DNA of 64,000 nt from Cirrosporium novae-zelandiae (lineage: Eukaryota). The DNA lies in assembly GCA_026023565.1 (NCBI GenBank), contig JAPETS010000026.1:186001-250000 (forward strand), in the 5' to 3' direction. The position numbers and the translations under genes are program-made. The notes under the pieces are model-generated. The model ran no database searches and was not told where the DNA came from. It saw nothing but the letters and a program-made list of their open reading frames with translations. This document shows positions 22,000-62,160 of this stretch, piece after piece (the stretch's first letter is position 1; the number at the start of each line of letters is the position of its first letter).

Positions 22000-24580
22000 T
22001 TTCAATATAGCGTCAAATCTGCAAGCATCCTTCTCCCCAAAGGGTGGAAACCTTGCTTAGAGTCATGTTGGACATTCTATCTCTCGGTTTTTTCAGGAGT
22101 TCGGCTTCGTACTAAAACTATAGGCGAAAGATACAAGAAACGAAGTATTATATTATCTATCGCTGATATTTAATCGGTATTACTACTTTTAATTAGATAA
22201 GATCGATGGAAATTTGTATTATTATTAAAGCTTCTATATATCATTATTGGAAGGCCGGGGACTGTAACACCCGAGCTCCGCAAATAATGTTCGATGAACC
22301 TCGGCAGGAATAAATCAATCGACTTTCCGTTAAACCAATAAATTAGGCTCTAGCTCCCGAGTAACGGGTAACAACGGCCGCAGATCGGATAATCCGTTCC
22401 GCGGGCAATTACCCGAATCTCGAGCAAATCAGAAACCATATTTAACCGAGATTTTCATTAATTCGCAAACCCTTTTTTAAGCTTCTTATACTTCTAGTTC
22501 CGTTTGGCTATCCGTTATATATTTTCTCAGTACTCTATTTCCTTACAGAGGCCTAGCAATCCTAGTATTATTACTATGATTTCCATCTCACTATCTTTCA
22601 GTCCTTAATTTTATATACAGTGGTACTGATCCCTGATATTGCTGTTTAATACAACAGAATATCGTGGTTATATTTCTTCTCTCTCGCTAACATATATTCT
22701 GTAGTATATAAGGAGTGAGCCTATTTTGCTATATAATAGTCTTTATCAATTTTATATATAATACAGCTTTAACTCTTTTATAAAATTGCTTCGATACGAA
22801 ATAATTGAGCAGCAATAATAGAAACTATAAACTCAATAATTTTCAATATAACTCTCCAACCGATGAACTCTGCTCCGCGTAGAATGATTGTTTGGGATTT
22901 TAATCCAAGTATATTTTATTTCTCTAACATTTCTACGCCAATTTCCCTGTCCGTTTATCCAATCCCGTATTCAGAAACTGATTTTTTCGTGAATACTGCG
23001 AATATAATAGCCCAGAATAATACTGTTATAGCAGAATATCAATCAATTAAAGAATCAATGATATTTATATCCCCAAACATCATTGGCGGAATTTTATAAA
23101 TATTCGAGACTAAGGACGCAGTAATTTATATTTCTCGACATCTACTATTGAAATACGAAAACCAATCTCCTATTTATTTAATTCCGCCGTAATAGAAGAC
23201 CTATTGGGCCTTTTATATCGACGGAATTTCGATCTATAGGGAAACTCAATTCAATACCGAGGTCGACATATTAATAAAAGTTATTTAATCTAAAATAAAG
23301 TCTGGGAGATCGGCTCCGCAACAAACTATAATAGTTCCACAAACCGATATTCCTTTCAATCCGATTATTCAGGACACTCAAAACTTTACCACCTTCACTC
23401 GATTTCAGAACGATAGAAGGCAAATAAAATATTACTATATATTCTTTAACTGTAATAGAAATTTTTCTCAAAAAACGAAACTGGAGATTCATATACGGGC
23501 GTATATTAGAGAAAGGCCGTATATATATTAACCAAATTTCAGATATTCTAGATCTGGATAGAATAGATTAACTATTCTTTTCCAGTTTTGTAGGGAGCCT
23601 TTTTGCGGACAACGGTTCTCCTAATCCGGAAATTTGAAAGTAAAGACTCTTTGACAGCTCCAAAAATAAAAATACTGCCACTAATCTATATATAATAGAC
23701 ACACGAAAAACGCTATACCGGTGAACGCTCTTATTTCTGTAGAATTTATAGAAAACGGTTTATTTAACGAGGTAATATTCGCGCCTATCATATCATACAC
23801 GAATAGCACAAACCTTTTATATACAAACTCGATAATTGCGGGAAATATTTCATTTAATTAGGCAATCTTAAAGTCATGGCTATCCTATCGAATTATATCC
23901 AGTTTCAAAAACTGACATCCATTGTAATTTTATCAGAACAGATTTTATATGACCATTCTTCAACGTCTCACTTCTAAATTTAAATCTATTAAACCAGGCG
24001 ATAGTCTCTCTGCCCAAAACAAAGAATTCTGGGAATATTTCGTTATATTTTACAAAAACAGCAACAAAGGTATCAAGGGCCGGGGGAAAAAATTGAACCG
24101 TGGAATTAATTAGATTAGATACAATATTAATAAAACTAAATATAATTTTCAACTGCTAGGCAAAATATTCTGCTTACAATACTATTTTACAGATTTGACA
24201 CTTCTTTAAGTGGGAGAGAAGAAGTCTGGAAGCAGAAATTCAAAAGGGAGTCGCGCGACTTTTTAGAAATCTTAGAAAACAGAAACCCTAGGAAAGTAGA
24301 AATCCCAGGATAATAGAAACCCCAAAGCAACAAAAACCTTAAGGCAGAAGAAGTCCTAGGGGGAACACGGAATTAGAAAACCCTTATTACAAATCGCATT
24401 CCTTGGAATACAGAAGAAGGGTGGGGTCAAAGAACCCCTACACCAAAGTGCTGCTCTTGGAGTACAGAAGAAAGGTAGGGCCACAAAGCCCTTGCTCCCA
24501 AATACTGTTCTTGGAGTATAGAAGAAAGGTGGGGTTAATATAAGCGCCGTTCTTGGAATATAGACGAAGGGTAGGGTCAT
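22000..24580 (-). pseudogene. RIP-inactivated gene of unknown family
   Basis: Long minus-strand frame segments punctuated by TAA/TGA/TAG compatible with C>T changes; includes ORF fragments 23271-23492 and 23880-24152. Confidence 0.5.
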
Positions 24581-24582
24581 TA
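24400..24582. repeat. Degenerate tandem repeat, 4 units (spacing 54, 54, 42 bp), core CTTGGARTAYAGAMGAARGGTRGGG
   Basis: Cores begin at 24402, 24456, 24510 and 24552. Confidence 0.8.
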
Positions 24583-27676: not shown

Positions 27677-28399
27677 GTTACGTGAGCCCGATCAGATATG
27701 ATTATACAGTGACTACTATAATCTAAGATCTTTAATTAATTTGATTAAACTTATTGTTCGATTTCTGACACCGGAGCCCAGCCAATTTAATATATTCGGG
27801 ATTTAATTTTAACTATATAATCGTAGTGGAATGGGTCTTTGATAAAGAAATGATGACGAAGATTAGTAGACTTAGCTTTCTAGAGGTTCTTTGTAAATTT
27901 CACACGTCTTTTTTATCACCTGCCCTCTTGCTGGATTATAATTTTAGGTGTTAGCGAATACTGTTTTCCTATTCATCTTGCCTATCCTGCTCTACTCTAT
28001 AGCTCTCTCAAAGCCTATCGATACCTCGAAGGTCTCAGCGACTGAAGACGAGTTGACGCATTGAATATTATAATTTTGAGGGACATTTTGCATACCATAG
28101 GGAACAGAACGCCCATGGCGAACCACATCCCCGGTGGGATGCGCTACCGCGTGGTGATTATCGCCCATGTGGGAGGCAAATCCCATGAAGGTTGTTATTT
28201 CTTATGGGATTAGGTGTCCTGTGGGATCTGTAGCCCATGGGGAATCAAAATCCCATGAGGGACCCCATAAATTATAGGACGGGGTCCTAATTGTGATGTC
28301 CCATTGAATAATACCCACTAGCTGATGATGACAGTATTTTACTAGTATCGTTCCATTTCTATTGAGATTTAGATACTAGGGTTCAGTTCATTCATAAGC

Positions 28400-29920: not shown

Positions 29921-30479
29921 TCAAGCCCTTTCCCGTCCATCCACACGGACAATCACTGGAGAGACATCTAAAGTAGGAGGTAAAACAACTTTAGACCTTC
30001 TCAAATTCCTTGTAGCTTCATCTGATCTTATTTTCTCGATATTTAAATGAGGGAGCCTAGCACGTTTTCCCGACCGGCATTCCTCCTTTTCTTCCGTCTC
30101 ATTCATCGGCGCGGTCAATTTCAACAGCTCAGTGGTGTTTTGGGTAGGCGAGGATAATGTCTCGAAATCTTTCGGTCCGAACCGTGTTGGGACTGGATAA
30201 ACCTTGTTCTGTGTTTAACGGTTAACGTGAGTTGGATCAGCATATATTTCATTGGGAACATACGAGGCCGTCATCCGGTGGAGGCCATTGAGGGCAGTCA
30301 GAGGAATTGTATACGTAGTATCTCTCATTCCTATGAATAACAAGGTAGACTTCAGCTTCACACATGAGTTTCATCTCATGGGCTTTCTTAAGTAAGTTGA
30401 TCTTTCTCCTTCGGAATCTTTCACGGCCCCGTTTTTCGCTAAGGTGTTCAGGCAGTTTGGCTGGCTTAATGCTGAACAT
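29921..30479 (-). CDS. MADS-box (SRF-like) domain protein, 2 exons
   Basis: RERFRRRKINLLKKAHEMKLMCEAEVYLVI...YVYNS...WPP; intron ~30262-30210 leads into ORF 29921. Confidence 0.8.
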
Positions 30480-30801
30480 GTTGTAAAATGGATGTGATAT
30501 GATATTCAAGTTCCATGGGCTATTGCCTTCTTAAAAGTTTATGGCTACTTTCTGGTGTCGGTTGGCGCCTCTGTTATGCGCCGACAATCTTTATACTCAC
30601 CACCCCGTCTACACTCACACCCACTGTTTATGCGCCAGGTAGCGCTTGATTTATTATCGGTAACTCATCGCTGCAACTAAAAATAAATTATATTTTTCAT
30701 TATACTTGGAGCTGAAAGCACTCCCTGGTCTAGGGGGTAACTACCTGAGTATTTATACGTTACTTTGCCTATATTTCCTAGCTTACTTAGATACTGCAAC
30801 G

Positions 30802-32525
30802 ATGGAGCCAACTCAAATTTATGGCATCGTTGTCGGGGCAATTTTGTTAAATCTTTTCGCATTTACTATGGCCAGGCGGGTCCTGCGCTTTCTTAATTCT
30901 CATTTTTACTACCGACTCCTTCATCATATTATATATCCAGTCATTTTCCGGCGCCACAAATTTGTAGCTCCTATGACTCGATTTCGGATCTTCTTACTAT
31001 TACTATATTGGTTTGGGACTCTTGCATGCAATATTACTGGTGTCCGATCTCGACGTGAAGCTGCTACACGTGCTGGAACAATATCCGTGATACACTTGGT
31101 CCCTTTGTTATTTAGCCATCGTCTCAGTTTTGCGGCTGACCTTATTGGGCTTTCCATTCGTACTTATGCCGATGTACATTGCACATGGGGCATCATGGCC
31201 TTTGTTCAAGCCTTAGCACATGTCATTATTATGCTTCAAGATACGGCCTTCAGTCTTAAAAGCCCGACCGGCTTATATGGTTTCATTGTAAGTTTTCCCA
31301 CCTCATATACACACAGCTAATACTGCCACCAGGCTGCACTGACTCTAGCTGTCATTTTGATCCTGTCTTTGCCACCAATACGGAATCGCTTCCATGAATT
31401 TTTCATGATAAGCCATGTGACATTTATTGTACTGTTGATCTATTCTATATGGCGCCATTTTTCTACCAACAAAGCCTTTGCATTATTGTATATTTTTATT
31501 GCATGCGCTCTATTTTCTTTTACCACTAGCCTTCAAGTAGCCCGTTTTATATTTCGAAATTTAGTCCCTGGAAAGCCGTCAACTACGGCCATGATCGAAT
31601 CAAAGGGAGACGCTCTCAGGGTGACTCTACAGCTTCCGCGACCATGGAGAGTTCGAGCTGGCCAGCATATTTACCTTTGGGTACCTGGGGTTGATGGTAT
31701 ATGGTCGATTTTCCAAAGTCATCCATTCTCAATTGCTTGGTGGAGGGAAGACTTTACCGGCAATGCATTTTCTGTGGCCCTTCTTATCAAACCAAAGTCT
31801 GGTCTTACTAGTAAATTCCTCGAGCATATTGGGACTAAAACAACAGCTTGGATTGACGGCCCTTACGGAAAGCCTCCTAGCTGGGGGAAATATGGTTGTG
31901 TAGTTTTGTTCGCAACCGGTATCGGTATTGCTGCGCAAATGCCATACATCAAAGAGCTTCTATTGTCCTATCACCGTGGTCATGTTCATACTCGGCATGT
32001 TATACTCATTTGGGAGCTGGAAGCTGAGTGTACGATATTCCTAGTAGGTGGTATTGACAACTGGTTAACTTCGAAGTAGGTCAGCAAGATTGGGTCGCTG
32101 AATGGATGGACGATTTCCTTCAGAGTGATAAATCCTCACAAATTTTAAAAATATCACTTTATATCGCTAAAGGGTTCAACAATCCTCAAAGTGCGTATGG
32201 GGGAGCAGTGAGATATGGTTCCAAAGAACGACTCGCTAAATTATATGGCATCGCCGATCTGAAATTGGTTCTGAGGAATCAGCTAGCAGAGCATCACGGT
32301 CGGACACTTGTAATTGGTAATATATCTCCTTCAAAATCTATGGTATAGATCTCTAATAATCATACAGTCTCTGCGGAGAATTTACGACGTGATAAAATGA
32401 GAGAGGAGATAAACAAGCTTAAACACGATCAAATCGAGCTTTTGGAATTGGATTTTCAGCCTAATGAACAAGGAATATCGCGGGCTTCGAAGAAAGGAAT
32501 TGTTCAGCATGAAGGAGTAATTTGA
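30802..32525 (+). CDS. Ferric reductase / NADPH-oxidase-like transmembrane flavocytochrome (FRE), 4 exons
   Basis: TM helices with paired His; FAD motif QSHPFSI, DGPYG, NADPH motif ATGIGIAAQ, terminal ELDFQP; introns ~31288, ~32029, ~32318. Confidence 0.9.
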
Positions 32526-32542: not shown

Positions 32543-32592
32543 AGAGGTCCCCTGTAAGAGCAGGTCGCTTTCTGAGGCAGGTCCTCCTTACT
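32543..32592 (+). promoter_or_regulatory. 17-bp-periodic AGGTC(C) motif array 1
   Basis: AGGTC at 32545, 32562 and 32579; TATAAAT at 32611. Confidence 0.6.
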
Positions 32593-32694
32593 AGATTACA
32601 CTAGCCTACCTATAAATTCTAGAGCGTAGCATTCACGATGACCATATCACATCAATTTTCTGCAGGAACAGAATCTATTTGTGTCTAAACTTCT

Positions 32695-33551
32695 ATGATG
32701 AATTATTGGAATTGTTTTTATTTCTTGTGGGCTTTTTGTAGCTCCATAAGGCTGGCATCTTCACACTCCTGGATAGAGGACCTTGTCCAAACGCACGAAA
32801 TAAACGAGAGTACCTTGGTGGGCCACATCGGATATTCCCGCGGTTACGGTAGACACCATATGTGCATTTTCTTTCTTTCTCTTGTTAACCTTACTCCTTT
32901 TTAGTGCCACGAACTATTCTTCAAGGCGACGCAAGAGTTCCTAATCCTAAATTCAGCGATGCTGCTATGACTTATTTGCTTCCCCCAAATGAACGTCTAA
33001 GTAATTTCATCCTTAGTACTGATCCAATCTGCATGACTAGTCAACAAAACTTCAACGAAACGGCAAACAGCCCAACCTTGCGTGCACAAGCCGGGTCGTT
33101 CATCGTCCTACGTTATCAAGAAAACGGCCACGTTACCCTTCCATCGCTTGGGAAACCGCCACGAGCCGGTCGAACCTTTGTATATGGAACAACACAGGCA
33201 GAGTCGTCTTTTACCTTGAAGGAAATACATAAAGTCTGGAGAAGAGGTTCTAGTGATTCTCAGAAAGGAGTTTTGCTATCCGAGCAGGAATTTGATGATG
33301 GGAGATGCTTTCAAGTAAACGAATCAGAAGAATCGAAAAAGCGCCAGAAAGTAGCGGGTTATCCTATCGATCCTATCCAAGGTTCTGATCTTTGGTGTCG
33401 GAATGTGATTAAGCTACCGGAAAATTTAAAGGAAGAAGATGTTTATACCCTTTATTGGGTTTGGGATTGGCCTACGGTGCCTGGTACAGCAGGAGCTCCA
33501 GAGGGGAAGGTGGAGATTTATACTACTTGTATTGATATTCTGATTATCTGA
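32695..33551 (+). CDS. Secreted protein with predicted mature N-terminal His (DUF7492-like, LPMO-like)
   Basis: Signal peptide then HSWIEDL; GYSRGY, LRYQENGHVTLP, FDDGRCFQ, YTLYWVWDWPT, EIYTTCIDI; intron ~32849-32904. Confidence 0.8.
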
Positions 33552-33593
33552 AACTAAACTTGTATAGGCTAATGTCATGAAATCTAATGTATA

Positions 33594-34010
33594 TTAAATC
33601 ATGATTGGTATTTCCGCTGTTTCCGCATCCAGATCAATACCCCAATACTCCGAGAACCGCTTTTCAGATGCTGCCACTTTTTCGGACATATCTTGTAAAG
33701 CATACTGAAGAATTTCAAAAGCTCTCGTCGTTTTTTCATGTAATTGTAAAAGAGCTGCTCTAACTTCTTGATGGTACACAATCTCTTGACGTAGAGATCC
33801 AACTTCGCGAACTAGTTCCTCCAGCCTTGAATTGGGAGTACCAGTAGGAGTATCCTTTGCCTTTTGCAATGCGCGAGGTGACATTTGAAGGGTAGAAGTG
33901 GTTCCCCCATGAGTTGCAATAAGGTGGTCGAGGCTTGTAACCTCTACAGGGTTTCCACGTTGTGGTCTAGGAGGGTAGCGTCTTTTATCTTGATACTCCA
34001 CAGTAGACAT
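33594..34010 (-). CDS. Small coiled-coil hypothetical protein
   Basis: 138-aa ORF with heptad region RLEELVREVGSLRQEI. Confidence 0.7.
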   Translation of the reverse strand: MSTVEYQDKRRYPPRPQRGNPVEVTSLDHLIATHGGTTSTLQMSPRALQKAKDTPTGTPNSRLEELVREVGSLRQEIVYHQEVRAALLQLHEKTTRAFEILQYALQDMSEKVAASEKRFSEYWGIDLDAETAEIPIMI

Positions 34011-34199
34011 TGAGTTTAATACTGTAATTATGAGTAGACGAAAATATATTAATATATCTCATATCAGAATGCTCACCGAAATTTATTAATAATTTTATAG
34101 TTTTAAGTAATCTTTTAAGTCTTTTGGTTCGTAACTGTTAGGTGAATAATGATGTTCGAGGCGGAGGTATAGAGGTAAATTAAAGGCTTTAGTAATTAC

Positions 34200-34250
34200 T
34201 GTCCTAGGTGGATGTCCTCCGTAAAGAGAGGTCCTGCTTTTAGGAGACCC
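34200..34250 (+). promoter_or_regulatory. 17-bp-periodic GTCCT motif array 2, in a divergent promoter
   Basis: GTCCT at 34214 and 34231 (also at 34201). Confidence 0.55.
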
Positions 34251-34323
34251 TGGCACTTTAAATAGCAGCACGAAAGCACTCTGTTAGTATAACTAAACAC
34301 CGAGATTAATTTTTAGAATAATT

Positions 34324-35392
34324 ATGGACCAAACTCGAAGACTGACAACATTTCCTCGAACGCAAGATTATGTTGCTCCGTCGGCAGCTCCATTATCCCT
34401 AGAATCTGCCACCCCTAAACCTCTTCATAAGCGCCCACGTGATTCTCCTCATTTTCATCTACCTATCAAGCAACCATTCCCCCAACACCTACATTACCAA
34501 ACTCCTTGGCACCATTTCCAACCATTTCTAAAGTACAATCATAAAGGACCTGCTATTATGGTTTATCAAAGTAACGACGCAATGGCTGTGAAATCTATGA
34601 AAATAACAAGGGGGTGGCAAGAGAGTGCTTTCAAAACAGTTCAACGCCCATCGCATCCGAACCTTGTTCCCCTTGAATGCGCATATCTGGATAAAGATAC
34701 GGTATACTTTGTCTATGATCACATGGACATCTCTCTCGCTCAACTTCAAGCTTCGCCAAAAGGAAAGCTCGAGTCATTTGAGATTGCAATTATCTGTAGA
34801 GAAGCAAGATATTTTCACCCCAGATTTAAAAACATTAAAGGCTAATCGATCCATAGGTCCTAGCTGGTATCAACTACATTCATACTGAGTTGAAAATCCA
34901 GCACGGAGCGATTGTTGCCGATAATGTTCTCTTGAATCGAGATGGAAATATCAAAATAGGTAGGATGGGTTATCACTAGCGGAACACTGCTCACGTTGAA
35001 TATAGCGAACATAGGTGAAAGTATGCTTAATGGCAAAAGCGTCGATGATCGAAGAAAAGATCACCGAGCCCTCGGTTTGATCATGGTGCAACTTATGGAA
35101 CCTCGAACACATATTACTGACCCCACTACACTCAAATTACAGCATCCGGAGAGATGGGATTCGCAAATACGCGATTTCCTAATGCAAACAGAGCTAGCTA
35201 CTTCCAGATCCCTTGCTGAGGTTAGTCTTTTTATCTTGAATTGGGACTTAACTAACACTAACTTAGCATGAATTTCTTGAAAGAGGGAAGGCATCCCAGT
35301 GGTTTAGACAACATGTGTATATCACTGAATCGACAATGTTTAGAGACTGGGAATTACTTGATTCGGATATAAAGGATATTCAGTTTGAATAG
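34324..35392 (+). CDS. Protein-kinase-fold pseudokinase, 4 exons
   Basis: MAVK, SHPNLVPL, ICRE/VLAGINYIH, HGAIVADNVLL, KIANIG; first intron is GC-AG (~34804-34856). Confidence 0.8.
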
Positions 35393-35866
35393 AGTACTTT
35401 GTTTTTTTTTCCATGTTGACAATACTATATATTTCCCAAAATATCCCGTGAGTATTTTTTATTCATTTCTCTTGTCCAAACCTCGGTAGCATCTTCAATT
35501 CCAAGAATGTCCATCGGCTTAACTGCGACGCTACCCGTAGCGGCTCGTAATCCGAAAACAAGATGCTGCGTAATAAGAGAAAGGACAAAGGCTATGCCTT
35601 CTAACTATATGCAAAAAAATCTCCCCGAGGGGTGTCATGCTCCGTGAAAAATTAAAAATCGAAGATTCTCACCTGCCCCTCAACTATTAATTTTAGCAGC
35701 CCCTAAGCGTGCGATAGGAGTTAAGCGCTGGATGACAAGTCCAGAGTGATGACATGACCTTGTCTACGCGGCGGTTGGGCATAGCCCTGGGCATTAAAGA
35801 ACCACCTTTCCCTTCCTTCACCTACTACTCTCTAGTCATTTCTTTCATTGCTACAAATTCATCAAT

Positions 35867-37642
35867 ATGGTCTCTCCATCATTACTTACTATTCCCCTAG
35901 AGGTGATGGATAGCATCACAATATATGTCGGTTCAAATTTATTCTTTGTATACTGTTAATATATACTAACTTCGTGTACTATAGCTCCCACATCGTGACC
36001 TTTTTCGCCTGAATCTTTCCTGTAAGGTCCTCCATTACATAACCCAGCCTCGACTACTCGCCACTGCATATGTCGACATTCCTGGACCCTGGCTTGATTT
36101 ACAAGGCAAGAAACGATACCTGCGCACTATAAAACACCTCGAAAGGAACTTGCTATCGGTCAGAACCATGGTTGTACGGGGCAATTCATCTTCTCGATTT
36201 TATGGGTCGCGAAGAACTGAAGAATGGGAAGAAGCGCATCTAGACACGTTCTGTGATACTCTCAAAATACTACCAAACTTAAAGTCCTTCAAGTGAGTTA
36301 TATATTGCTAGATATTGGAGCTCGTTCATAGGTTTCTAGGTTTTGTTTTTTTGAAAATGCAATAACAATGGACTGGCTTTGCGAGGTGTGGGCTACGTTA
36401 TCCAAGTCAAAGAGACTTACTTTTATGGAGACCAATTTCCCCCGTGAAATCGAGAACACCCCATTCGGATTTCCCAAGCTTCGCTCTCTGAAACTTTTCG
36501 TTGGTCTTCGGTCACATGGATCGTTGCCTCTTATGCCAGAGCTCGCACAGCTAGAAGTAGAGTTTCATAGGGACTATACTTTGGACAGGATCAGTCACCA
36601 GCTTCGCGGATTCATCAACTTCAGTCAAATGCCAAAGCTTTTGAGTCTCTATTTAGGAAATATCTGGTTCTTCTCTCAGATTCTGGATACGAGGCCTTCT
36701 AATACGCTCAAAGAACTTATCTTCAAAGGTTGCAGGAACATCTCTACAACCTCGGTCCGTAAATTTTCTTCAGTTCTAAGAAATCTTGTCGTAGTAGCTT
36801 GCTCCTTGGAGCCAACTCGATCGGAAATGGTTCATCTTCCTTATCTTCAGACTTTGGAATTACTTGATTCTCAAGAAGGCGGTGATGACTGTTTGCTGAA
36901 ATATTTGAACTGTCCTCAACTTATTGACCTCAACTTAAAATGCAGATTTGATCAACGGGAAATTGAGTTCGCGACCTCATTATTCATTGAGAGGTGCAAA
37001 CAGTTGAAGGCTTTATTTCTCGCCCTTCACCATGAGTCTTCGAAATCTTACGCCATGTCCGCCGATCTATTCCTTAGCCTCCTGGGACTAGATGATCTCC
37101 ACTATCTCGCTTTTTTGAACGAACATATGATAAGTTGGCGCATGCTAGCTCGGTTGATGGAGGGACGACAAAATTTGGTCGGACTAAGTTTAAGCATAAG
37201 CCTAAACACCTCTGATCCTTCCAGTCAGTGCGTTAACGTAAGTTGTTGTGTATGTGCCTATGGGGATCTGTGAAACTAATAGATTTGCCTTTAGTTACAA
37301 AATATGAAATTGATGTATAGTCCGTATCTTCGAAACCTGTGGCTAAGGACTAGCGAAGTGGGTGTAGAGGGAGAAATTGCGGAACTTCTAATTTGTGACT
37401 GGATAAATGCTAGTAATAGCAGTCAAATACCACCAGCTTTACAGCAGATTATTGTTGAGGGGCAGGTATATAGCATTGAGCAGTTCAAGGCAGGCAACAC
37501 GTTGACACTCGGTCTCAACTGGCTAGTCCAGTTACCTCCAAGCACTATCTTCTGGTGGATGAGGTGTATTGTTCATGAAGATCTTACAGAGCGTTTACCA
37601 CTTGGTTGGGAAATAGAAGGGAGGCCGTCTTGGGAGTTGTAA
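35867..37642 (+). CDS. F-box protein with LRR-like repeats
   Basis: LLTIPLEVMDSITIYLPHRDLFRLNLSCK followed by LxxLxL repeats; three introns. Confidence 0.75.
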
Positions 37643-38043
37643 TTCCAAATTACTGTTTCTGTTACGCTTGTATTGGCAAGGAGGAAATCCGGCTGGTGGT
37701 CCACAATCATATATTATAAGCAAGAATGGTAAAATGTTTTAGTATAGTCCTTCGTCATAGTTGTATATACGCCGTGATAATTATGAAGACCATTTTTATA
37801 TAACTGTTATCATAAAAATTACTTCAATACTTCAATAATTCTATTCAACCCAATCTAGTCTAGCAGACATACTATGACAAAACCACTTCATTATTAGGCG
37901 TAGAAGATCGAAAGTTCAACGTGATTTTACAACGATTCAACGAAGGAGTGGGATGAACAATCGCAGCTTCGCAGATCAATTTGGTTTTATCCTAAATCTA
38001 TTTGGTAAACTAGATACATAGAGTTACAAGGAAAATAACAAAA

Positions 38044-39001
38044 TCAAATCGCAAAAAATATAAAAGCCATTAAAACCTCCCCCAGCAAAATATTTAGAGA
38101 TGGTATCATTTGAATAACCGTATCAGAAGTGGATGTAATGGTTGCAGTAGAAATAGTTGCTGTAGGTGGAGAAGGGACCGTAGGCTTTCTCCAAGCCCCA
38201 GTTGAAGTTGCAGTTGAGCTTCTACTCAGCATTGAAGAACCTGTGCCGGTTGTAAAGTGTGGTCCTGAAGAAGCAATAAGTGCAGAACTACCAGTCGTAT
38301 ATATTAAGGTCCGGGTTGATGCAATAGTACTACCATTGTATCCAATTGTACAAGAAATATCCGGAACCGTGACTCTAGGTGTCTGAGCATCAGCATTGGT
38401 AATAAAACGACTCATTCCGTCCCCTGGGTTAATAGCAAAGATCATGCCAGCATGACAATGCGAGATAGGAATTTGTTGGTGACAGAAAAACCATCGAGGC
38501 TTTGTGGACTGGACGGAAAAAAAAGCGAACATGCCCGTCTCATTTCGAGGATCGAAAAACACGAACCCAGTATCGAAGCCGTCTTTGAGTGGAGTGCATG
38601 GGTGGTCAATTGTTGACTGAGTCAAACTATGGTTGCCAGATAAAAAGTGGAAAACAATAGTATCGTTTATTTCGGCGCGAATATAATTAGGCTCGAACTG
38701 AAGGTGGCCGCCTGCAGCTACTTCAATAGTGTGGATCGCTGTTGTTGCTGTTGTTGCTGTTGTAGAAGCTGTAGAAGCTGTGGAAGCTGTGGAAGTTGTG
38801 GGGGTTGTGGGGGCTGAGTGACCAATGATAATATCGAGCCCTCCGCTTATGAACACAGATACGTCTTTTATTGATGTTATTGCCGTGGTGACTGCCGAGG
38901 GCCTACTTAATAGTAAATAAATTTTCTATCATATTTTCTTAAACTTACTTCGCAAAAGCTAGGACGAAAGGAATACCGAGAGCGTACAGGAGAGCCAGCA
39001 T
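38044..39001 (-). CDS. Secreted, probably GPI-anchored cupredoxin with Ser/Thr-rich stalk
   Basis: Exon 1 signal peptide MLALLYALGIPFVLA, intron ~38948-38903; NHSLTQS and WFFC-x7-HCHAGM type-1 Cu ligands; hydrophobic C-terminus. Confidence 0.85.
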
Positions 39002-39159
39002 CCTGTTCTGAATTGTTAAGTTGTTGGTGGGTGCACTCAAGGTTGAAATCGGAGAAGCGCAGCTTTTGAACTGCGGTTTGATTTACGATGGCAAGCAATG
39101 CTTTGTAGTAGGCGCGCGAATGAAACCTTGGAAACAGGATTATATTTTTAGGGTCTTTA

Positions 39160-39230
39160 AACAGGGGTCCTGTCTAAATGGAGGTCCTGCTTAAGAAGAG
39201 GTCCTGTTTAGGAAGAGGTCCTCTTGGAAG
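39160..39230 (+). promoter_or_regulatory. 17-bp-periodic GGTCCT motif array 3 (4 units), in a divergent promoter
   Basis: GTCC at 39167, 39184, 39201 and 39218; TATATAA at ~39262. Confidence 0.7.
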
Positions 39231-39325: not shown

Positions 39326-42300
39326 ATGGGAAAATACGATCAATGGCAAAGGCCTCAGTTGCAGGCTGAACTCAGAAGCCGTCACATGCCTGCAACAGGT
39401 GCGACTGCTACTCTTGTTAAACGTCTTAGCGAAGCGGACATAACAGACAAATATGCATCAGAAAGATATAGCAAACTCAAAAAAACGGAATTACAGGATG
39501 AACTCAAAAATCGTGGATTAATTGTAACCGGCAATAAGCCAATTCTAATTCAACGTCTTATTGATTCAGATGAGAAAGAAGAATTAGTCGACGAGGATGA
39601 GCCGAACTATCCTAGTCCTCCACTGCCACAGCAACCTCCGCCTCCTCCACTTCCACAGCAACCTCCTCCACTTCCACAGCAACCTCCTCCACTTCCACAG
39701 CAACTTCCATTTCCACAACAACCTCCTCCACTTCCACAGCAACTTCCACTTCCACAGCAACCTCTTCCACCTCCACAACAACCTCCTCCACTTCCACAGC
39801 AACTTCCACTTCCACAGCAACCTCTTCCACTTCCACAGCAACTTCCATTTCCACAGCAACCTCTTCCACCTCCACAACAACCCCCCCCACTTCCACAGCA
39901 ACTTCCACCTCCACAACAACCTCCTCTTCCACAGCGTGTTCCGCAGCCACAACCTCCGCGACAATCTCCTCAAAAATACCCTATTCCACAACTTTCACAA
40001 ACGGATTTTCTTTCACAGACAAGTATACCAAATATCAAATATACAGTTGAACAAGAACTACAGAAAAATGGATTTTCACAATCAATACCGATTGTTGAAA
40101 TGGACATTGATCAACTCGGGCCGACTGGAACGAAACGAAAGCCCGAATCTGAAGAATCTGAAAAATCTAGTAAAGCACATAAATTACTTAAACTCTCAGG
40201 TAAAACACCATCGCGGCAGCATCAAATAGAAATTCAACAAGCCGCCGCCCAACAAGCCGCCGCCCAACAAGCTGCCGCCCAGCAAGCCGCTTCTGAACAA
40301 GCTGCCGCCCAACAAGCTGCTGCCCAACAAGCCGCCGCCCAACAAGCCGCCGCCCAACAAGCTGCTGCCCAGCAAGCCGCTTCAGAACAAGCCGCTTCAG
40401 AACAAGCCGCTTCAGAACAAGCCGCCGCCCAACCAAAGACACCGTCAACAAATAATAAAATATTCAAAGACCTATCAGCACGATGTAATGAATATATGGC
40501 AAAATATGGAAAGACTAGGCTTGAGTTTAGTGGTTATTTACTTCAAAGTATTCTTAACTCTGAAGAAATTAAAAAAATACTTAAAAAAGTGGACCTGCAA
40601 GGAAACAGTACTGACGAGGATGTTCGTGGATGCCAATTTTTTATTCTCGGAAAAGAGAATTTTGACCTTCTTACATCAACGTTTGAAGATGTTGCAATAG
40701 ATGATAATCGATTTCCAAACATAGATATAGCTGCACTAGATTCGGCCAAAAATATGTACCGTTATATACATCCAGATAAATTCAATGCGAATGAAGTCTT
40801 TTTAAAAGAAAAAGCGAATGAAGCTACAAAAAGTGAGTGGTATCCTCGAAGAGAATTAATATTTACTAACGTGTTATAGTTCTTCATAAAGTTAGGGATA
40901 TCTTATTTAAACATGTTACGGATCATTACGCATTAGATGGGATCTTAATTCCAGAAGCTGATCCTATTCCAAAATACCCCGCTTATCTTCAAAACCTACC
41001 ACCGCAAGGCACACAAATGACGTTATACCAAACAAACTATCAAACACTTACAGATGAAATGCATGCCATGTTTAGAGATCCCTACAACAATACTGTTACA
41101 CAAAACCTTCACCAGAAAATCGAAATTATAAATAGTACAATCTACCACACGAATAAAGAGCTAAAGATTCAAGAAATCTTCGGGTTAATTGATGAATCTA
41201 AAATAGTGCAAGCGTTTAGAGTCAACCAGCGGACTCACATGGAAGACAAGAAGCTCTGTTTTGATGATATCGATATAGAGGCAGCGGCTAACGACATTCG
41301 TGATCTTTGTCTTCAAAAAGACTATCCACTGACCTGGATCCCTGCTAAGGATCTAAATGCTCCTATACTTTCTTTGAAAGATGAGTTTTTGCAACATCCC
41401 CATTCAAATTTACCGTCAAAGCAAACCCTATATAATCAGTCTTCTGCGATGACCTCTGGAACTTTTTGGGCTTATCCTTATAAATCCAAACATCAAGAAG
41501 GATATTTACAACCTATCTTACAGTCATATGAGCAGAACGTGGAATATCGGAAGGGTTTTACTATTGACGGTTTCCCAATACTTGCTTATCGTAAGATAGG
41601 CAGGTTAGGATTTCAATTTCTTGTAAAGTTTAGTGAAAGGTATTTTGCATTGTTGCCTGAACGAGAATGTGGAGGGATTTGGGTTCGAGATCTCAATGTT
41701 CCAATGGACGAAAATGGCAACGTCAACGAAAGTGAAGCTGTGGAAAAGATTGGGAAATATGCGGATGAAGCTTCCAAGCGTGCCGCAGAAATTCGTGCTT
41801 CTAAACCCAGACTGATTGGTATTGCACAGGCACCTCGTTCTATGCCGCCCAGGTATTCCGTAAGATATGGCGACCTACCATCAAGAATGAATGAACCAGT
41901 GGTTGCTATATGTCTTTCATGGAGTGGAAATCAGTGGTGGCTATACAAAACTTGTTTAAACGCCATTTTAGGTGAAGGAGTTGTCAGCGCTTATATTAGA
42001 AGTTGCACCATCCCAACTAAAGCGCTCCCATCTTCAGCGCCTCAAGGGTTGATACAATATCCATCGCAAGGCTTGGAGGCTATTCCTCGATATAACTTAC
42101 GGGCACTTCCAGAACCAAATCCTGTTCAGGACCGGCAACGTGTTTTACTGTCGTTTCCGACTTCCGAGCCACAACAACAAACGAATAGTTATTACGGACC
42201 TTTTAATTCAACCGCATCGTTCAACCAGCAGTCTCAGTACGGTTCGCCTCCAGTACCTCTGGCACCTCCAGTATCCACCCAACAGCCTCAATATGATTCG

Positions 42301-53420: not shown

Positions 53421-53834
53421 TCAACCTCTACTGTCTTCCTGAAGTGGGTACTGCTGATATATTTCTCGGATATCATTTTCGTTTTGATGCTGGTTATATT
53501 TGTGAGCAGCTAATGCATATCCCATCGTCAAATGGCATACCTCAGCTATGATCCTTTGAGCTTCCTCCGTATAGCTCACAAGTTGTTCCACTTCCATCCG
53601 ACCGAGCCCTCTACTTTGCACCCAGTTGTCTACCGCTTCAATGTTCCAGTGATTATGATGCCCAATCTCTGGAAATCCTTCTCGAAGACGTCTTAAACGG
53701 TCGCGAAGTCCGACAATCGTCCGACTTTGCCCACACTTTTGGTTGATGAGATGGGCACAAGTCTCGTGGTATACACCCCTTGATATCCAAAATATAAGTA
53801 CAATCAACTCTGCATCGGACCAATCTTTAGCCAT
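53421..53834 (-). CDS. Small Myb/SANT-like protein
   Basis: DWSDAELIVLIFWISRG..CAHLINQKCGQSRTIVGLRDRL. Confidence 0.6.
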   Translation of the reverse strand: MAKDWSDAELIVLIFWISRGVYHETCAHLINQKCGQSRTIVGLRDRLRRLREGFPEIGHHNHWNIEAVDNWVQSRGLGRMEVEQLVSYTEEAQRIIAEVCHLTMGYALAAHKYNQHQNENDIREIYQQYPLQEDSRG

Positions 53835-53968
53835 ATTGGTGACGGTCGAAAAGAAGATCATACCCAAAAATTCAAATGGAGAAACGAAATAATATATTGG
53901 GAGAATTCTAATTTATACTATTTAGACCAAAGGATGTTATACCCTGCCTGAGATTACTTCGCCGCTCT

Positions 53969-54515
53969 CTAGCTGTCATCCGTTTCTTCTACCTTCCTCT
54001 GCCCAGAGACCTGAAGAGCGGCAGATCTCGGTTCTTCAAGGGCCGAAATAAGATCCAATATCCAGGTTCTCAAAGTCTCACCGACATAAATTCTCAGAGC
54101 CTCTAATTTCCTAACCTAATTAGTTTTATTTTAAGATCATGTGGACGTTGATCTCACTTCGCCTGGGCTTCAAGTCTATTCGTTTATTAATTCCCTTATC
54201 AATTTGCGATGAGGGGAGACATTACTCTTGTTGGAGTTGTTCAACTCGTAAGTGGAGTTCTTCCATTTCAGTAATGCTAATTTGAGTTTCATTCTTTATG
54301 CAGACATGCGGCGCAGTTTGCTCGGCTAAGGTAGAAGTATGTGAAGAGGTATTTTCTGGACCAACCAGTGGTTCAGGCAACCAGAAATCTGAATCAAGTT
54401 CTAGTGCAGGCAATTTGGAGAAGTCAAAGCAAGAGAAGTCCTCGCTTGCATGGAGGTGTGGACTAGCGGGTTCTTGAAAAAAACTGTCCCAGAACTGCTG
54501 CTCGCTTTGTGACAT
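53969..54515 (-). CDS. Protein with acidic/aromatic N-terminus and coiled coil, multi-exon
   Basis: FWDSFF/DFW-rich N-terminus, MEELHLRVEQLQQE, downstream intron-like segments. Confidence 0.5.
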
Positions 54516-55109
54516 GGTGAAGGATTCTAGGAACAGAGAAGGCTGGTTTTATGGTTTTTGTTGTAGGCAGCTCCATCTTTTATATTCTTTGAAGCCTTAT
54601 ACCTTGGTCCATGCAGCGCTTCTTCAACCATTATTCCAGAGAGCTCGCAGAGATTTCTATTATTCACCACTCGGTTCAAATATTGTGATCACCCATCATT
54701 CAAAAATATTATCTTAGTTACTCGCTTTGATTTGTTGTAACGGGCTGACCATCCTTTGCCGCCTTTACGACGAAGCGCTACCTTTAGTGGCAGTTGGCGT
54801 GCACGTCCTCATTTCCCCGGAACGAGTTTTGACCCGCTATGATAGGATTACTTGGCCCGGAGTACAAGCTTCCCCAAAACCCTTGAACCTGGGTGAACTT
54901 CGATTAACTTTTCCCAAAACAGATGAACTAGCTTGCGCTAAGAAGCACATTTCACACCCGCACACAATAGTAGATATTGGTAGTCGCTAATTGGTCTGTG
55001 GTATCACTCACTATAAGCGCAAGCGCGAAAAATAAAACCTCAGTAAAGTATATTAGCATCTGATCGCAACCTGATCATTTAATTCTACAATTCTTTATCG
55101 CAATTATTG

Positions 55110-55706
55110 ATGATGGGCTCTCGTACTAACCCAGGGGGGAAAAGGCTTTGGACTGACGTCGAACATCAACGACTTGTACAAATTATTGAGAGGAACCCCA
55201 GAGCCTCTCGTGGCAAGCTAGTGGAGCTTTTTAATAAGGGGCTTCAGCCTGATCAACGGCGCAGCTACGATGGTGTTTCGCAAAGGGCTAAGGTCATTCT
55301 CAATCCGAACTCAGCAAAGAAACCCAAAGCAAAGCGCAAAATAGCTACGCAGAGCCACACAAAAAGGCAGATCGCACCGTTACCTCCTATCAACAAGACC
55401 ACCATTTCTACTACGACCCAGTCCATGGCATCCGTAAATCTCCTCTCCCACACCCAGCTAGGATTTGGTCAAGGAGCGCACCCTCCAATACCATCGGTAA
55501 GTGATTACGGCATTATATGCATGTGTTCATACTTACACTTTTTCCAGGATCATCAAATCTCGATACCTGGCTTTACTTCAAACACAGTACCGGTGACCGG
55601 AGATAATCTAGAAATGCCTTATGTTCCGCAGATGTCTGCATCACTCTACCCACCTTATTATTTGATGCTTTACCCTTCTCAGATTCCTGTTCAGGAGAAA
55701 CGTTAA
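55110..55706 (+). CDS. Myb/SANT-like HTH protein
   Basis: KRLWTDVEHQRLVQII..LVELFN..RSYDGVSQR followed by a basic patch. Confidence 0.6.
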   Translation: MMGSRTNPGGKRLWTDVEHQRLVQIIERNPRASRGKLVELFNKGLQPDQRRSYDGVSQRAKVILNPNSAKKPKAKRKIATQSHTKRQIAPLPPINKTTISTTTQSMASVNLLSHTQLGFGQGAHPPIPSVSDYGIICMCSYLHFFQDHQISIPGFTSNTVPVTGDNLEMPYVPQMSASLYPPYYLMLYPSQIPVQEKR

Positions 55707-59398: not shown

Positions 59399-60253
59399 AT
59401 GGATCACAATCATCAACAACAGATGATATTACCATATGATAATTCATTTGAATACTCAGTTCTGCCTACATGCATTCCTCAAACAATGTGTCAATTTCCT
59501 GCATACCTTCCTCAAACAATGTGTCAATTTCCTGTATACCTTCCTCAAACAGCATGTCAATGGCCTTGGCAGGTGAATCCTACGACTACGTATTCACCAC
59601 CAACATTGCCAGCAACTACTACAACCGATTTTTTGCCGGCAACTACTACAGCTGGTTCTTTGCCAGCAACTACTACAGCCGGTTTTTTGCCAGCAACTAC
59701 TACAACCTGTTCTTTGCCAACTGAAACTAAAAGAAGAAAGAGGATGACGGTTGAAGTCCAAAATAAAATACTTCAATATCATGAAAATAACCCGAAAGCC
59801 AAACAAACCGAGATTGGAGGTAAGTTTAACTACAATTTTTTTATTTTCAAGCTAAGAATTTTACAGCCATATTCGGATATGAGAGAAGGTAATTGGATAG
59901 CCCAATATTTTACTATTCTGCAACTGATAAATTGTTATTCCAGTACGATTTCAAGACTCTTAAGGAAACGTTCTAAGGGCAAATTCCCTAAAATCTTGAC
60001 GAAATGTTCTCTATCGTCTAGAATAGAAAAAGAACTTTGGAATTGGGCACATAAGCAACAACAGAAAGGCTTTTCTGTCACCGATGATGCCCTACAGAAG
60101 AAAGCACAGTTCTTCCTATCTTCTATCGACCCAGACCCAGACCCAGAGTCTCATCGGGAAATTAACGGCTACACCTGGTTTGAAAACAATCTCTACACTA
60201 GACTAAGCGACAAAAGCTCCCCCCATTCCTGTAATTATAGACGAAAACAGTGA
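59399..60253 (+). CDS. CENP-B/Tc5-type double-HTH protein without a DDE domain
   Basis: RKRMTVEVQNKILQYHENNPKAKQTEIG..STISRLLRK..IEKELWNW..VTDDALQKKAQFF; two short introns; N-terminal 33-bp and 27-bp coding repeats. Confidence 0.7.
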   Translation: MDHNHQQQMILPYDNSFEYSVLPTCIPQTMCQFPAYLPQTMCQFPVYLPQTACQWPWQVNPTTTYSPPTLPATTTTDFLPATTTAGSLPATTTAGFLPATTTTCSLPTETKRRKRMTVEVQNKILQYHENNPKAKQTEIGGKFNYNFFIFKLRILQPYSDMREGNWIAQYFTILQLINCYSSTISRLLRKRSKGKFPKILTKCSLSSRIEKELWNWAHKQQQKGFSVTDDALQKKAQFFLSSIDPDPDPESHREINGYTWFENNLYTRLSDKSSPHSCNYRRKQ

Positions 60254-61182
60254 TAGCCAATCCAATCAATTCGGTTTCCTCCGACCATCTCCGAAATATC
60301 GTCGCCCGAAAAATTAGAACCCAAAGCAGGTCAGCATCCAAATCTAGATGAAGAGGAAAATCAAGGAGGAACGGGGGAGCTTTGATCAGTCAAGTCCACC
60401 AACTTTGGAGAGCATAAGGATCCAAAAAGTTGTCAATCTCTTTTGTAAAGTATTCTTGGTGGATGGTGCAAGGAGATTGCGAGCCAACTTCCTCGGTGAC
60501 GGAATTACCGTTCAAATATCTCGTAGTGGAATGTTTGCAACTATAATGTGGATGGTTCTGGGATCGCAAAATTATTGCTTTTATAATACTAAGTCTTTTG
60601 ACATTCTATCCTCGCTTAAACACTATTATGATGTTATTATCAACTTTACCATTAGGTCTTCCTAACGTTGCTAGCCTTATGTATTGATGCCCTTTTTCGC
60701 TGAGGGCTTGGAAAAACTATGTAGTTTTGACTTTCACCAACTAGTCCTCCGCCCTGAGAAATACATATCGAAAAAAATGAAGAATACTGAGGCATACGCC
60801 GTAGACGGAAGAACAAAAAGGATTTGTACCTAAACTACTGAGCAGTTTGAGAGAGTGTGAGATTGGGACACGAACGTAGTAGAAGCCAGAGCTAGCGAGA
60901 AAAACATACCCTAAGGGAGCAGTCAAGGTACGTTCAACTTCATCTTTAATCTAAGCGTCCTTATCGATTCTAGGTATAAGTGATGGCTCTAGTGCAATAG
61001 GCCATGTACAGAAAGTTTCAGTGTTAAGCTACCAATATCTAAATTAGTAACTTCCCTAATAATAAAACCCACCGTTCCATAGAGATGGTAACTCTTCACT
61101 ATATTCATGTCAACTTATAAAGTTATAAGATATAGGAGAGTGAAGTTAATATAATGTAGATTTTTCTTGTAGCACACGTAAT

Positions 61183-61571
61183 AAGACCAGACCGATTAGA
61201 CCAAGGGGGTCGGTCTATGAAAATCCGAGGCCCGGTCTCGTCACGTGATACAATTATACAATATAAGCTGTACAGAGCGCGGACAAATTTTTACACCTAG
61301 ATTTACAACCCCTCATCTTGTCTCCACGTGATATCACGCGGAGATAAGATAGTTACTAATCGATACGAAATAAAATACCGAGCTCCGATACTCTTAAATT
61401 TCCCCAACAAATCTCTACATCACACTCAACACCACAAAAATATGCCCCCCACTTTATAATTCGCATTTATATAGACCAGATAGACCTTGGAAAATCAAGG
61501 TCTGGTCGGTCTAAGGTCTATAGACCGTCTATAGTAGACCGTCTATTTGGTCCAGTCTATTGCCAACCCTG
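61183..61571. mobile_element. Possible one-ended DNA-transposon (hAT-like) relic with TAGACC/GGTCTA subterminal repeats
   Basis: Many AGACC/GGTCT copies in both orientations, ending in ..GTCTATTGCCAACCCTG (reverse complement CAGGGTTGGCAATAGAC). Confidence 0.4.
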
Positions 61572-62160
61572 TAGACTGTAGACAAGACAACGGTTCGAGC
61601 CCTTCCACCCCTCGTAGATATTTTGAACTCCTTAACCCGGTTTTCTGTAACCACTGGGGAAATGGGTGCCTCGGGCTGTGTCTGTGTTTAGGAAATTCTA
61701 GGGTTTCCTCCTTTTTATGCCCTGATTATTAGGCTATTGGTAGTCAATCACGTGCCGCTAGATGTGTGCCTGAGGCATGGATACGACTACGCTAATTCCA
61801 ACCCCCAACAGAAGCCTATGAAAACCACAACAGACGCGTTGGCATACCTACTACACATGTACAGCAAACTATTATTAAGATAGCCATATAAATTATCATA
61901 CTATCCAAAATGGAAAAATGGAGAATCAAATTCCATATTGTTTACGCTTGGCAGAGGACGTATGTATAATTTCAGAGATGACCAGTTAACGATAAAGCTC
62001 TGTATCAGATGATAGCCGAGTGGGACGGCTCGTAGTATAGTACAGATGGCGTTTCTTAAATGAGAAATCTCGACTTGAAGTTTCGTTTGTTATTCCTTCT
62101 TGCTACCAACTGCCCAACCCCAGCAATAATTGACAACTTCCTGGAGAATTACAACAGAAT

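Follow-up and report, generated by a model that had tools for sequence, protein, structure and literature searches.

An internal 20-bp dyad in the promoters of the captain and several core genes of a Starship in Cirrosporium novae-zelandiae

Starships are described as elements with a DUF3435 captain and auxiliary DUF3723, FRE, PLP and NLR genes, and with direct and terminal inverted repeats at their ends (PMC11162782, available sections). Captain expression is called unresolved in the available part of one study, which also finds stronger co-expression among ship genes than between them and other genes of the genome (10.1101/2024.06.28.601215); it is raised by circularisation according to the accessible portion of another (10.64898/2026.09.21.753150). 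The literature searched, covering the main text of Starship papers, yielded no described Starship promoter motif or regulon. Elsewhere, TerR of the terrein cluster is a zinc-cluster protein that is encoded in the cluster and reads CGG direct repeats; its site is bipartite with fixed spacing, is found in all but a minority of the promoters and has multiple copies in divergent ones (PMC4360782, in the part available). Many ZR sites of ZafA/Zap1 end in AGGTCCYY, and their CARGGT core is essential (PMC6070888, likewise in part).

The window analysed here is a 64,000-nucleotide stretch of the Cirrosporium novae-zelandiae genome that contains three arrays of 17-bp repeats. Bacterial integrative elements have master regulators that act through AcaCD and SetCD boxes, and the KplE1 integrase is autoregulated. 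In the ship described here, as in those systems, a single element-borne site appears to join the recombinase promoter with other element genes; the likeness to bacterial elements carries no claim of homology. The dyad resembles the TerR site, so far as the available text describes it, in being bipartite with fixed spacing and in occurring at most promoters of one cluster while sparing some. It differs in its GTCC/GGWC half-site and in its putative targets, which are a recombinase and mobile-element core genes, and the search for a zinc-cluster gene turned up none. The array units end in AGGTCCYY like the ZR sites, but CARGGT is present in 0/11 units, and both the dyad and the 17-bp phase are foreign to the ZR consensus given in the accessible part of PMC6070888. 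While the repeats in the available Starship descriptions (PMC11162782) lie at the ends, those here are internal promoter dyads.

The Starship and its three 17-bp arrays

The window arrays lie within a Starship, and the captain recombinase gene of this ship is found 15 kb beyond the left edge of the window. The DUF3435 captain is the first gene at the 5′ end (C48:170034-171413; E 3e-40) and is followed by patatin (PLP), DUF3723 and FRE genes, the same gene set as in the available Starship descriptions (PMC11162782), with no NLR among the ORFs scanned in the ship. The captain protein carries a C2H2-type finger at its end. Codon 12 of the gene is an in-frame stop, so its present-day function is doubtful. 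The 5′ end is placed at ~C48:168490 from a 554-bp duplicate (92%; one genome compared), and no matching 3′ end was found in this genome. A divergent MADS (minus) and ferric reductase FRE (plus) pair (30249..32520) belongs to the Starship core and has a promoter without the dyad; FRE relatives are 29–44% identical.

The original prediction reported AGGTC at 32545, 32562 and 32579, GTCCT at 34214 and 34231, and GTCC at 39167, 39184, 39201 and 39218, and all nine unit coordinates are correct, with exact 17-bp spacing. Its shared motif, GGTCCT, is exact in six of the nine units (32580, 34230, 39166, 39183, 39200 and 39217), the remainder reading GGTCCC, GGTCGC and TGTCCT. A TATA-like box follows each array as proposed: TATAAA at 32611, a weak TTTAAATA at 34257, and CATAAA at 39251 or TATATAA at 39262.

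Array 1 (32543..32593, plus; three units forming two chained dyads, 32547-32566 and 32564-32583) is located between the FRE stop and a DUF7492 gene (32695..33551, plus; PF24320, E 4e-73) with its TATAAA box at 32611..32616 (plus). The gene had been labelled LPMO-like, which is plausible given the hydrophobic leader and the His-Ser-Trp that follows it in exon 1, but is unproven; the protein has no match in the PDB and its fold model is uninformative (pLDDT 33).

Array 2 (34210..34243, plus; two units forming one dyad, 34214-34233) is located between divergent genes, a small coiled-coil gene (33594..34010, minus; 217 relatives at E<=0.001) and a spliced kinase-like gene (34324..35370, end approximate, plus) with paralogues in two other ships, C13 and C90. 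We take the latter to be a pseudokinase from the first reading of the sequence and from known kinase motifs; exon 1 has no Pfam match and a word-index protein search with it returned nothing. The same type of search with the coiled-coil protein matched only the query itself. A search of viral contigs found nothing. This gene pair is kept in other Starships, and the nearest TATA-like box of the coiled-coil gene is 113 bp from the array.

Array 3 (39163..39230, plus; four units forming three chained dyads, 39167-39186, 39184-39203 and 39201-39220) separates a secreted cupredoxin-like gene (38044..39001, minus; weak pseudoazurin matches, best E 0.047) with a minus-strand TATAAT at 39139-39144 from a divergent SAP-domain gene (39326..40879, plus; PF02037, E 1.4e-14). 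The latter had been called SAP-J; Pfam reports the SAP domain but not a J-domain.

Seven core pairs at 17 bp compare with a mean of 0.15 and a maximum of 2 in local dinucleotide shuffles (7 reached in 0/300), a comparison that is partly circular because the core pattern was derived from these same units. A weight matrix built from the nine units located no further arrays within the window, and in an autocorrelation scan the signal was drowned by AT-rich DNA.

Dyad geometry and distribution

The invariant feature is a 20-bp dyad, GTCCYNY-N6-RNRGGWC, with a 6-bp spacer, rather than a direct repeat. The original prediction noted that the spacers differ; they are not free, however: the three bases flanking the core on each side obey a mirror rule, with YNY on the left in 12/12 dyads and RNR on the right in 11/12. 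The 17-bp period arises because neighbouring dyads chain on a common GGTCC. The right half-site is GGTC in all seven cargo-array dyads and GGAC in all five captain dyads, the GGAC variant having been admitted to the pattern only after the captain sites were known. The cargo arrays have a single orientation throughout, and the sites at the captain are inverted repeats, irregularly placed but with a constant 12-bp core distance. The geometry common to both is the dyad over a 6-bp spacer and not the head-to-tail sites first proposed; since neighbouring dyads share bases, the cooperativity proposed with them is not implied.

The dyads are concentrated in the ship. GTCC-N12-GGWC occurs at 16 sites in the 86.3-kb ship, where none of 21 other spacers exceeds six sites (range 0–6), and at two sites in 177.7 kb of flanks. 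Genome-wide there are 75 strand hits (control 74), corresponding to 53 sites, of which 11 are in the 86-kb ship region (one a relic duplicate) and 42 are spread over the other 31.3 Mb; outside the ship there is only background, with no two dyads within 10 kb of each other anywhere else in the genome. The window has five dyads where 0.06 are expected. A fourth array, held out from training, is located 14 kb left of the window, is followed by TATAAA and marks a fourth promoter. Upstream of the captain there are four to five dyads within 750 bp (9 strand hits at this locus, 0.03 expected), and the strongest palindromes are all inside the 5′ kilobase of the ship.

The YNY/RNR rule, derived from the arrays, holds for 5/8 ship sites that belong neither to the training arrays nor to the relic copy (chance 1/16 each; p ~5e-5, calculated by hand). 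A matrix built solely from the window arrays scores three held-out ship sites at 19.5, 17.8 and 17.8, whereas the best of the 14 flank hits reaches 15.5, and it gives a weaker 13.8 to a site in the PLP/DUF3723 promoter; a matrix built from the captain sites alone recovers the arrays weakly (7 ship and 5 flank hits). In seven of eight promoters, a TATA-like box lies 18–45 bp from the sites, in both directions. The MADS/FRE promoter and several other ship promoters are without the dyad, as are the last 20 kb up to the presumed 3′ end. A chance coincidence of short words, to which the absence of genome-wide enrichment for looser pair patterns (99 vs control 140; 63 vs 91) might point, is refuted as to the existence of the pattern by the counts in the window and at the captain locus and by the spacer and held-out tests, and is highly improbable.

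Other repeats in the window have different properties. A weak dyad at 28260-28281 scores 11.9, within background, and the region around it (28095..28310, plus) is an array of a different, 17–18-bp-spaced, CCCATGGG-type, upstream of a presumably Est1-like gene that has no Pfam match. Degenerate 17-bp units (24267..24370, plus) precede a decayed FunK1 kinase gene; copies of this region at C14 and C125 have ~16 units with a AGAGGTCC/AAAGTCC core. The core is not fully exclusive to this ship, because AGAGGTC at a 17-bp period also builds slippage minisatellites on C14, on C125 and within the C13 ship.

These minisatellites bear on the rather unlikely reading that a 17-bp unit was expanded by slippage and pasted between promoters of one element, with no common regulator. 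They are true 17-bp minisatellites with the same core in ship-related DNA, varying from 1 to ~16 units among copies, and the uniform orientation and GGTC right halves of the cargo arrays fit such an origin. Promoter pieces do get copied, as illustrated by an exact 17-mer common to the captain and FRE/MADS promoters of the C90 ship (exactly two copies in the genome) and by a core-promoter cassette common to five places. However, the central six bases vary among units with mirror symmetry retained, which is beyond slippage alone; the captain's irregularly placed inverted repeats keep the core distance; and the distance between site and TATA box is narrow in both directions.

The reading that we tentatively prefer, at a little short of even chances, is that the dyads are operators of one dimeric regulator that would co-control the captain and core ship genes. 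One sequence-specific dimer would read two facing GTCCYNY half-sites across the 6-bp spacer, and two or three dyads chained on a common GGTCC would give the 17-bp period of the cargo promoters. Bound 18–45 bp from the TATA boxes, it would switch the captain together with a subset of core genes (a 95-aa ORF, DUF7492, pseudokinase, SAP, cupredoxin-like and probably PLP), by activation or repression. Of the original proposal, an element-internal regulon under one factor, part stands (one motif, near TATA boxes, with 11 of the 53 dyads of the genome in 86 kb), but the motif is absent from orthologous ship promoters. The proposed reach of up to five genes is extended as far as the motif goes, to the captain, to the fourth gene and, through a weak site, to the PLP/DUF3723 promoter, and control of these genes is predicted from the sites. 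We infer protein binding, transcriptional regulation and a ship-borne origin of the protein; the regulator is more likely to be ship-borne than host-encoded because the site is concentrated here and does not occur at the corresponding promoters of other ships.

Candidate binding proteins

MADS, Myb, C2H2 and CENP-B-like proteins had been put forward as binders, and none is singled out. The window encodes candidates in a Myb-domain gene (1556..2647, plus), two short helix-turn-helix/Myb-like ORFs with counterparts in the C13 ship (53421-53861, minus; 55110-55706, plus; HTH_32 in 53421..55706 at E 0.045, below cut-off), and a CENP-B-type HTH gene (59399-60253) and C2H2 gene (62161-62763) in the region 59399..62763 (plus). 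The CArG box of MADS proteins, CC(A/T)6GG, is present in 0/9 window units, and the ship C2H2 fingers, by the recognition code, would read GCG-GGG, which does not fit, the code being too loose to exclude them.

Known host motifs were also compared. Nrg1 and STRE sites have the consensus AGGGTCC or AGGGG, and these are found in 0/11 and 1/11 units, respectively. The CARGGT core of the zinc-response element is likewise absent from the units, and upstream regions of host ZIP-transporter genes contain CARGGT in 5/5 and the array unit in 0/5. CGG or CCG half-sites of Zn2Cys6 proteins occur in 1/11 units and 1/5 captain dyads, and a six-frame regular-expression search of the ship, in which an intron could hide a match, found no Zn2Cys6 domain. 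Fixed-spacing half-site pairs in several promoters of one cluster are found here, as in a Zn2Cys6-type regulon.

It is unlikely that the binder is a pathway-specific factor encoded by the present host or an earlier one, such as a zinc-cluster dimer on everted half-sites, into whose circuit the ship has plugged its genes. Zinc-cluster sites (e.g. Gal4, FacB) share with the dyad a layout in which a spacer of constant length has the conserved bases on its outside, and the lack of such a protein among those found on the ship would fit a host origin; a regulator with few targets would be hidden among the 42 background matches. Against this, there is no site cluster elsewhere in the genome, the host motifs examined fail, and three ships in one host carry different promoter words. 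Starships move between species (10.1101/2025.02.28.640899, in the part available), and ship-specific words could therefore be signatures of donor hosts; ship and host are confounded in the metagenome loci.

Binding by the captain itself, both at its own 5′ region, for autoregulation or for synapsis, and at cargo promoters that it would regulate, is improbable. Tyrosine-recombinase core sites (dif/Xer) have inverted arms around a 6–8-bp spacer, and the dyad has a similar layout with 7–8-bp arms around 6 bp; the best palindromes are in the 5′ kilobase, the captain has its terminal finger, and the sites differ between ships as captains do (25–33% identity). The palindrome cluster is seen at the 5′ end only, the 3′ end not being located. 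But in recombinase cores the conserved bases adjoin the spacer, whereas those of the dyad are the outer ones; a 20-kb stretch leading up to the presumed 3′ end has no dyad (the true end not being located), and the codon-12 stop also argues against this reading.

Promoter words in other Starships

The original prediction named absence from orthologous promoters as evidence against it, and neither the two sister ships nor the 27 metagenome loci have the motif in these: the C13 ship has one dyad, which is coding, the C90 ship none, and single hits in 2/27 metagenome loci are both outside orthologous promoters. Hits with 17-bp periodicity in this genome number four in ships and none outside, which is suggestive at most as two of the four are training arrays, and 15 metagenome loci show no general 17-bp periodicity of ship promoters (1 hit at 17). 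Two candidate words were rejected in the C13 ship, a 10-bp CTCACC array before the captain (one cargo pair; genome-wide 25 vs control 30) and eight N13 hits that are a coding 9-bp repeat.

Promoters of different genes match better when they come from one ship (29 pairs) than when they come from two (144 pairs; p=0.0002), unlike the gene-body (p=0.90/0.065/0.65) and shuffled (p=0.13/0.50/0.99) controls. The excess persists after removal of the C48 ship (p=0.0004) and among the three ships sharing a host (p=0.005), and is not seen in metagenome ships only (p=0.11) or in five held-out promoter classes (43 vs 78 pairs, p=0.42; DUF3723 alone p=0.068), where two start positions are displaced by a single base and some of the start codons used (CC56) are likely to be internal. 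An annotation-blind comparison of the pseudokinase promoter with 9 kb of its own or another locus (10 loci) was null, and is without power because the positive control ranked 5/10; its single rank-1 result is an overlap artefact.

Starships, captains and auxiliary genes are already known; what appears new here is an internal promoter dyad common to the captain and core genes. It is conceivable, if doubtful, that each Starship has a private cis-regulatory code, with its own operator common to captain and core promoters and read by a fast-evolving ship-borne protein (possibly the captain), and that giant eukaryotic transposons may thereby coordinate mobility in the manner of bacterial integrative elements, whatever host they land in. 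Comparison of captain and core promoters within and across ships is runnable on hundreds of catalogued ships. The 20-bp site would be a bait for the regulator of the captain and core genes, and the dyad would mark ‘unknown’ ship genes as part of the mobility programme. If true, a dyad code would account for continued cargo expression once a ship has jumped to another species.

A Starship on contig C48 and the dyad in its promoters

The fungal assembly that contains the window (C48:186001–250000) is 31.4 Mb in size, and contig C48 carries a DUF3435 tyrosine recombinase gene (the captain; C48:170034–171413) followed 3′ by patatin and then DUF3723 genes, with MADS, ferric reductase (FRE), DUF7492, SAP, Myb, C2H2 and CENP-B-type genes in the window. 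On this gene content the element is classed as a Starship giant transposon (cf. PMC11162782). A 554-bp relic (C48:254134–254685), 92% identical to captain-upstream DNA and ending before the captain, suggests that the 5′ end of the ship lies near C48:168490; a 3′ end was looked for and not found, and working limits of C48 168.4–254.7 kb were used. The relic keeps its two dyads with a single change, at a free position. The captain reading frame is interrupted at codon 12 by an in-frame stop, and an internal 100-bp duplication lies upstream (169181–169296 vs 169281–169382, 72%). The cargo includes a half-size ABC transporter gene (PF00664 and PF00005; window 42813–45480). The N-terminal exon of DUF3723 (L045:4820–5233) has a GRHRIA stretch that we take to resemble the ParB/sulfiredoxin motif, and the product could be DNA-associated. 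Directly after this gene, a 51-bp (3×17) repeat (L045:7466–7630; C48:183466–183630) sits in a minus-strand ORF and could encode a 17-residue repeat.

The original prediction described three arrays of a GGTCCT motif, upstream of an LPMO-like gene (here DUF7492) and between the divergent coiled-coil/pseudokinase and cupredoxin/SAP-J genes. All nine motif positions and the exact 17-bp spacing are present in the sequence, and the hexamer is exact in six of the nine units, the remaining three deviating. The window contains seven 17-bp core pairs (300 local shuffles: mean 0.15, maximum 2), and a weight matrix from the nine units finds no additional array anywhere in the window; both results rest on patterns taken from the arrays themselves, and evidential weight is placed on held-out tests. 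TATA-like boxes follow as had been proposed, the nearest core being 18, 21, 21, 23, 26, 28 and 45 bp from a box at seven genes and 113 bp away at the coiled-coil gene, using a box pattern that admitted weak boxes.

Across 264 kb of C48 the window matrix identifies one further strong 17-bp pair (C48:172573), with TATAAA and then an ORF of 95 codons behind it. Five inverted repeats, GTCC-N12-GGAC, lie 140–750 bp 5′ of the captain start codon (C48:168765–169376; L044:2765–3376), with a core distance identical to that of the arrays, which are GTCC-N12-GGTC. The consensus of 12 aligned dyads is S-GTCC-YNY-N6-RNR-GGWC-S (YNY in 12/12, RNR in 11/12). Adjoining array dyads overlap in a GGTCC that serves the first as right half and the second as left half, which gives the 17-bp period; captain half-sites stand back to back or singly at irregular intervals. 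The right half is GGTC in all seven cargo dyads and GGAC in all five captain dyads. Because the inner spacing is kept in both settings, we infer a dimeric protein, which would span the 6-bp spacer between half-sites.

Strength and confinement of the signal

The 86.3-kb ship contains 16 GTCC-N12-GGWC sites, including five training sites and three in the relic duplicate. Any one of 21 other spacer lengths gives 0–6 sites there, and the N12 pattern has two sites in 177.7 kb of flanks. Five of the other eight ship sites obey the YNY/RNR rule (p about 5e-5, by hand); the spacing and this rule came from the arrays, and the GGAC variant was introduced after the captain region was seen. With a symmetrised matrix from the window arrays only, three held-out ship sites outrank all 14 flank matches. 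The patatin-like/DUF3723 promoter site scores 13.8 on the window-array matrix, a level that five flank matches reach. In the opposite direction, a model built from the captain sites does less well, with 7 matches in the ship and 5 in the flanks.

Genome-wide, the full dyad GTCCYNY-N6-RNRGGWC gives 75 strand hits vs 74 for the control. Of its 53 sites, 11 lie in the ship region and 42 elsewhere, so that it is about 100-fold denser in the ship and at background level outside, where the genome-wide scan found no two sites within 10 kb. Contigs C35 and C47 have near-identical matches at the same coordinates and are probably an assembly duplicate.

It is quite probable, judging from the sequence, that the dyads are protein-binding sites. 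The binder may, tentatively and at somewhat below even chances, be a regulator, distinct from the captain, that the ship itself carries. The captain itself is an unlikely binder, as is a factor from the host, present or former. AGGGTCC, AGGGG, CGG/CCG half-sites and the CArG box are known host motifs, and as readings of the units they were rejected (0/11, 1/11, 1/11 and 0/9 units, respectively); a regex scan of the ship in six frames found no zinc-cluster domain. CARGGT, the core essential for ZafA (PMC6070888), is likewise in 0/11 units, and five host ZIP upstream regions contain CARGGT and lack the array unit.

Minisatellites and other repeats

Beyond the ship arrays, AGAGGTC with a 17-bp period also builds minisatellites, which retain the right half-site and not the dyad rule. 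About 16 units stand upstream of the FunK1 kinase copies on C14 and C125; those in the window and on C90 have a single unit. In the C13 ship a 17-bp (51-bp higher-order) minisatellite with this core lies between divergent genes (L067:2340–2570; C13:595.3–595.6 kb), 5′ of an F-box paralogue of window 46971–48283, the window copy having no array. These minisatellites may be sites of the predicted dyad-binding protein or of one akin to it, or an example of array spread free of function; that the dyads themselves spread by copying without function is quite unlikely.

A multi-copy block of Est1-like, C2H2 and FunK1 kinase genes (window 18400–27700; also L095, L096, L097, L079, L065 and L073), decayed and AT-rich in the window, has one to about 16 copies of a 17-bp unit and then 54-bp repeats. 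A core-promoter-like cassette, TGTGATG...ATTGAATAGT, stands 5′ of FunK1, Est1-like and a C90 gene (window 24891 and 28292; C90:47113; C14:1190; C125:3953), two copies having different 17-bp-phased arrays immediately upstream. The C90 ship has two further such arrays with cores GTGCCCTCC and TTGACTTGAG, at L061:3540–3620 (38.5 kb; with a TATA-like box some 50 bp further on) and L060:2020–2070 (47.0 kb). For the C13 ship, the start seems to fall within a putative 5S rRNA-like sequence, identified by eye, and five CTCACC-type units with 10-bp spacing stand 5′ of its captain (L067:9190–9400; C13:602.2–602.4 kb). All three ships and the flanks also contain a MITE-like, non-coding repeat in which GACCAGACC inverted repeats abound (window 61180–61560; C48 173.4–173.8, 250.7–251.4, 113.7 and 261.7 kb; C13:580.8 kb; C90:41.7 kb).

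Other ships and related systems

The C13 and C90 ships of the same genome bear the same core genes and have one (coding) and no GTCC-N12-GGWC sites, respectively. A coiled-coil family search of metagenomes gave 27 loci (250,737 bases; divergent pseudokinase in 16, DUF7492 in 13) with four occurrences of the N12 pattern (other spacers 1–14) and one full dyad in each of two loci, both outside orthologous promoters. Orthologous promoters of both sister ships and these loci, where the original prediction would expect the motif, lack it; given this near-absence, it is no conserved feature of these genes.

Among 21 promoters of six ships (fixed 300-bp windows), those of different genes are more alike within one ship (29 pairs) than between ships (144 pairs; permutation p=0.0002; start codons picked by eye, pairs non-independent), an excess not seen in the same test for gene bodies or shuffles. 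It gives p=0.0004 without the C48 ship, p=0.003 without C90 as well, p=0.005 for the three same-host ships and p=0.11 for the three metagenome ships alone; five promoter classes added later have no within-ship excess (p=0.42; DUF3723 alone p=0.068), and a separate blind test, of low power, was null. An exact 17-mer is shared by the C90 captain and FRE/MADS promoters (L060:8807–8823, C90:53807; L061:2226–2242, C90:37226), its only two genome copies, with a one-mismatch copy 5′ of a decayed C45 captain. Among the matches listed for other ships, two L126 promoters have TAGGGGGCCAA in common, three L117 promoters combine a G-run with (G/T)CCA, and the orthologous promoter of a metagenome ship (L112/L113) has a 17–18-bp GAGCC(T/G)CAC array 250–330 bp 5′ of DUF7492. 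Generalisation to ship-private words in other ships is a lead and not a result.

Bacterial integrative elements have master-regulator boxes, and the C48 dyads, with the recombinase promoter included, resemble these without being a member of that class. They are comparable in working to TerR-type cluster-specific regulons, as described in PMC4360782, again without membership. A literature search covering listings, abstract starts and term matches found no internal Starship promoter motif, including in passages of 10.1101/2025.02.28.640899, 10.1101/2023.11.22.568313, 10.1101/2022.08.04.502770, 10.1101/2025.11.25.690456, PMC11162782, 10.64898/2026.09.21.753150 and 10.1101/2024.06.28.601215. The dyad is known from one ship of one genome, and other ships partly support a similar logic. 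At the level of sequence it is real, well placed and confined to the element, and as a putative operator it would link the captain promoter with the core cargo promoters.
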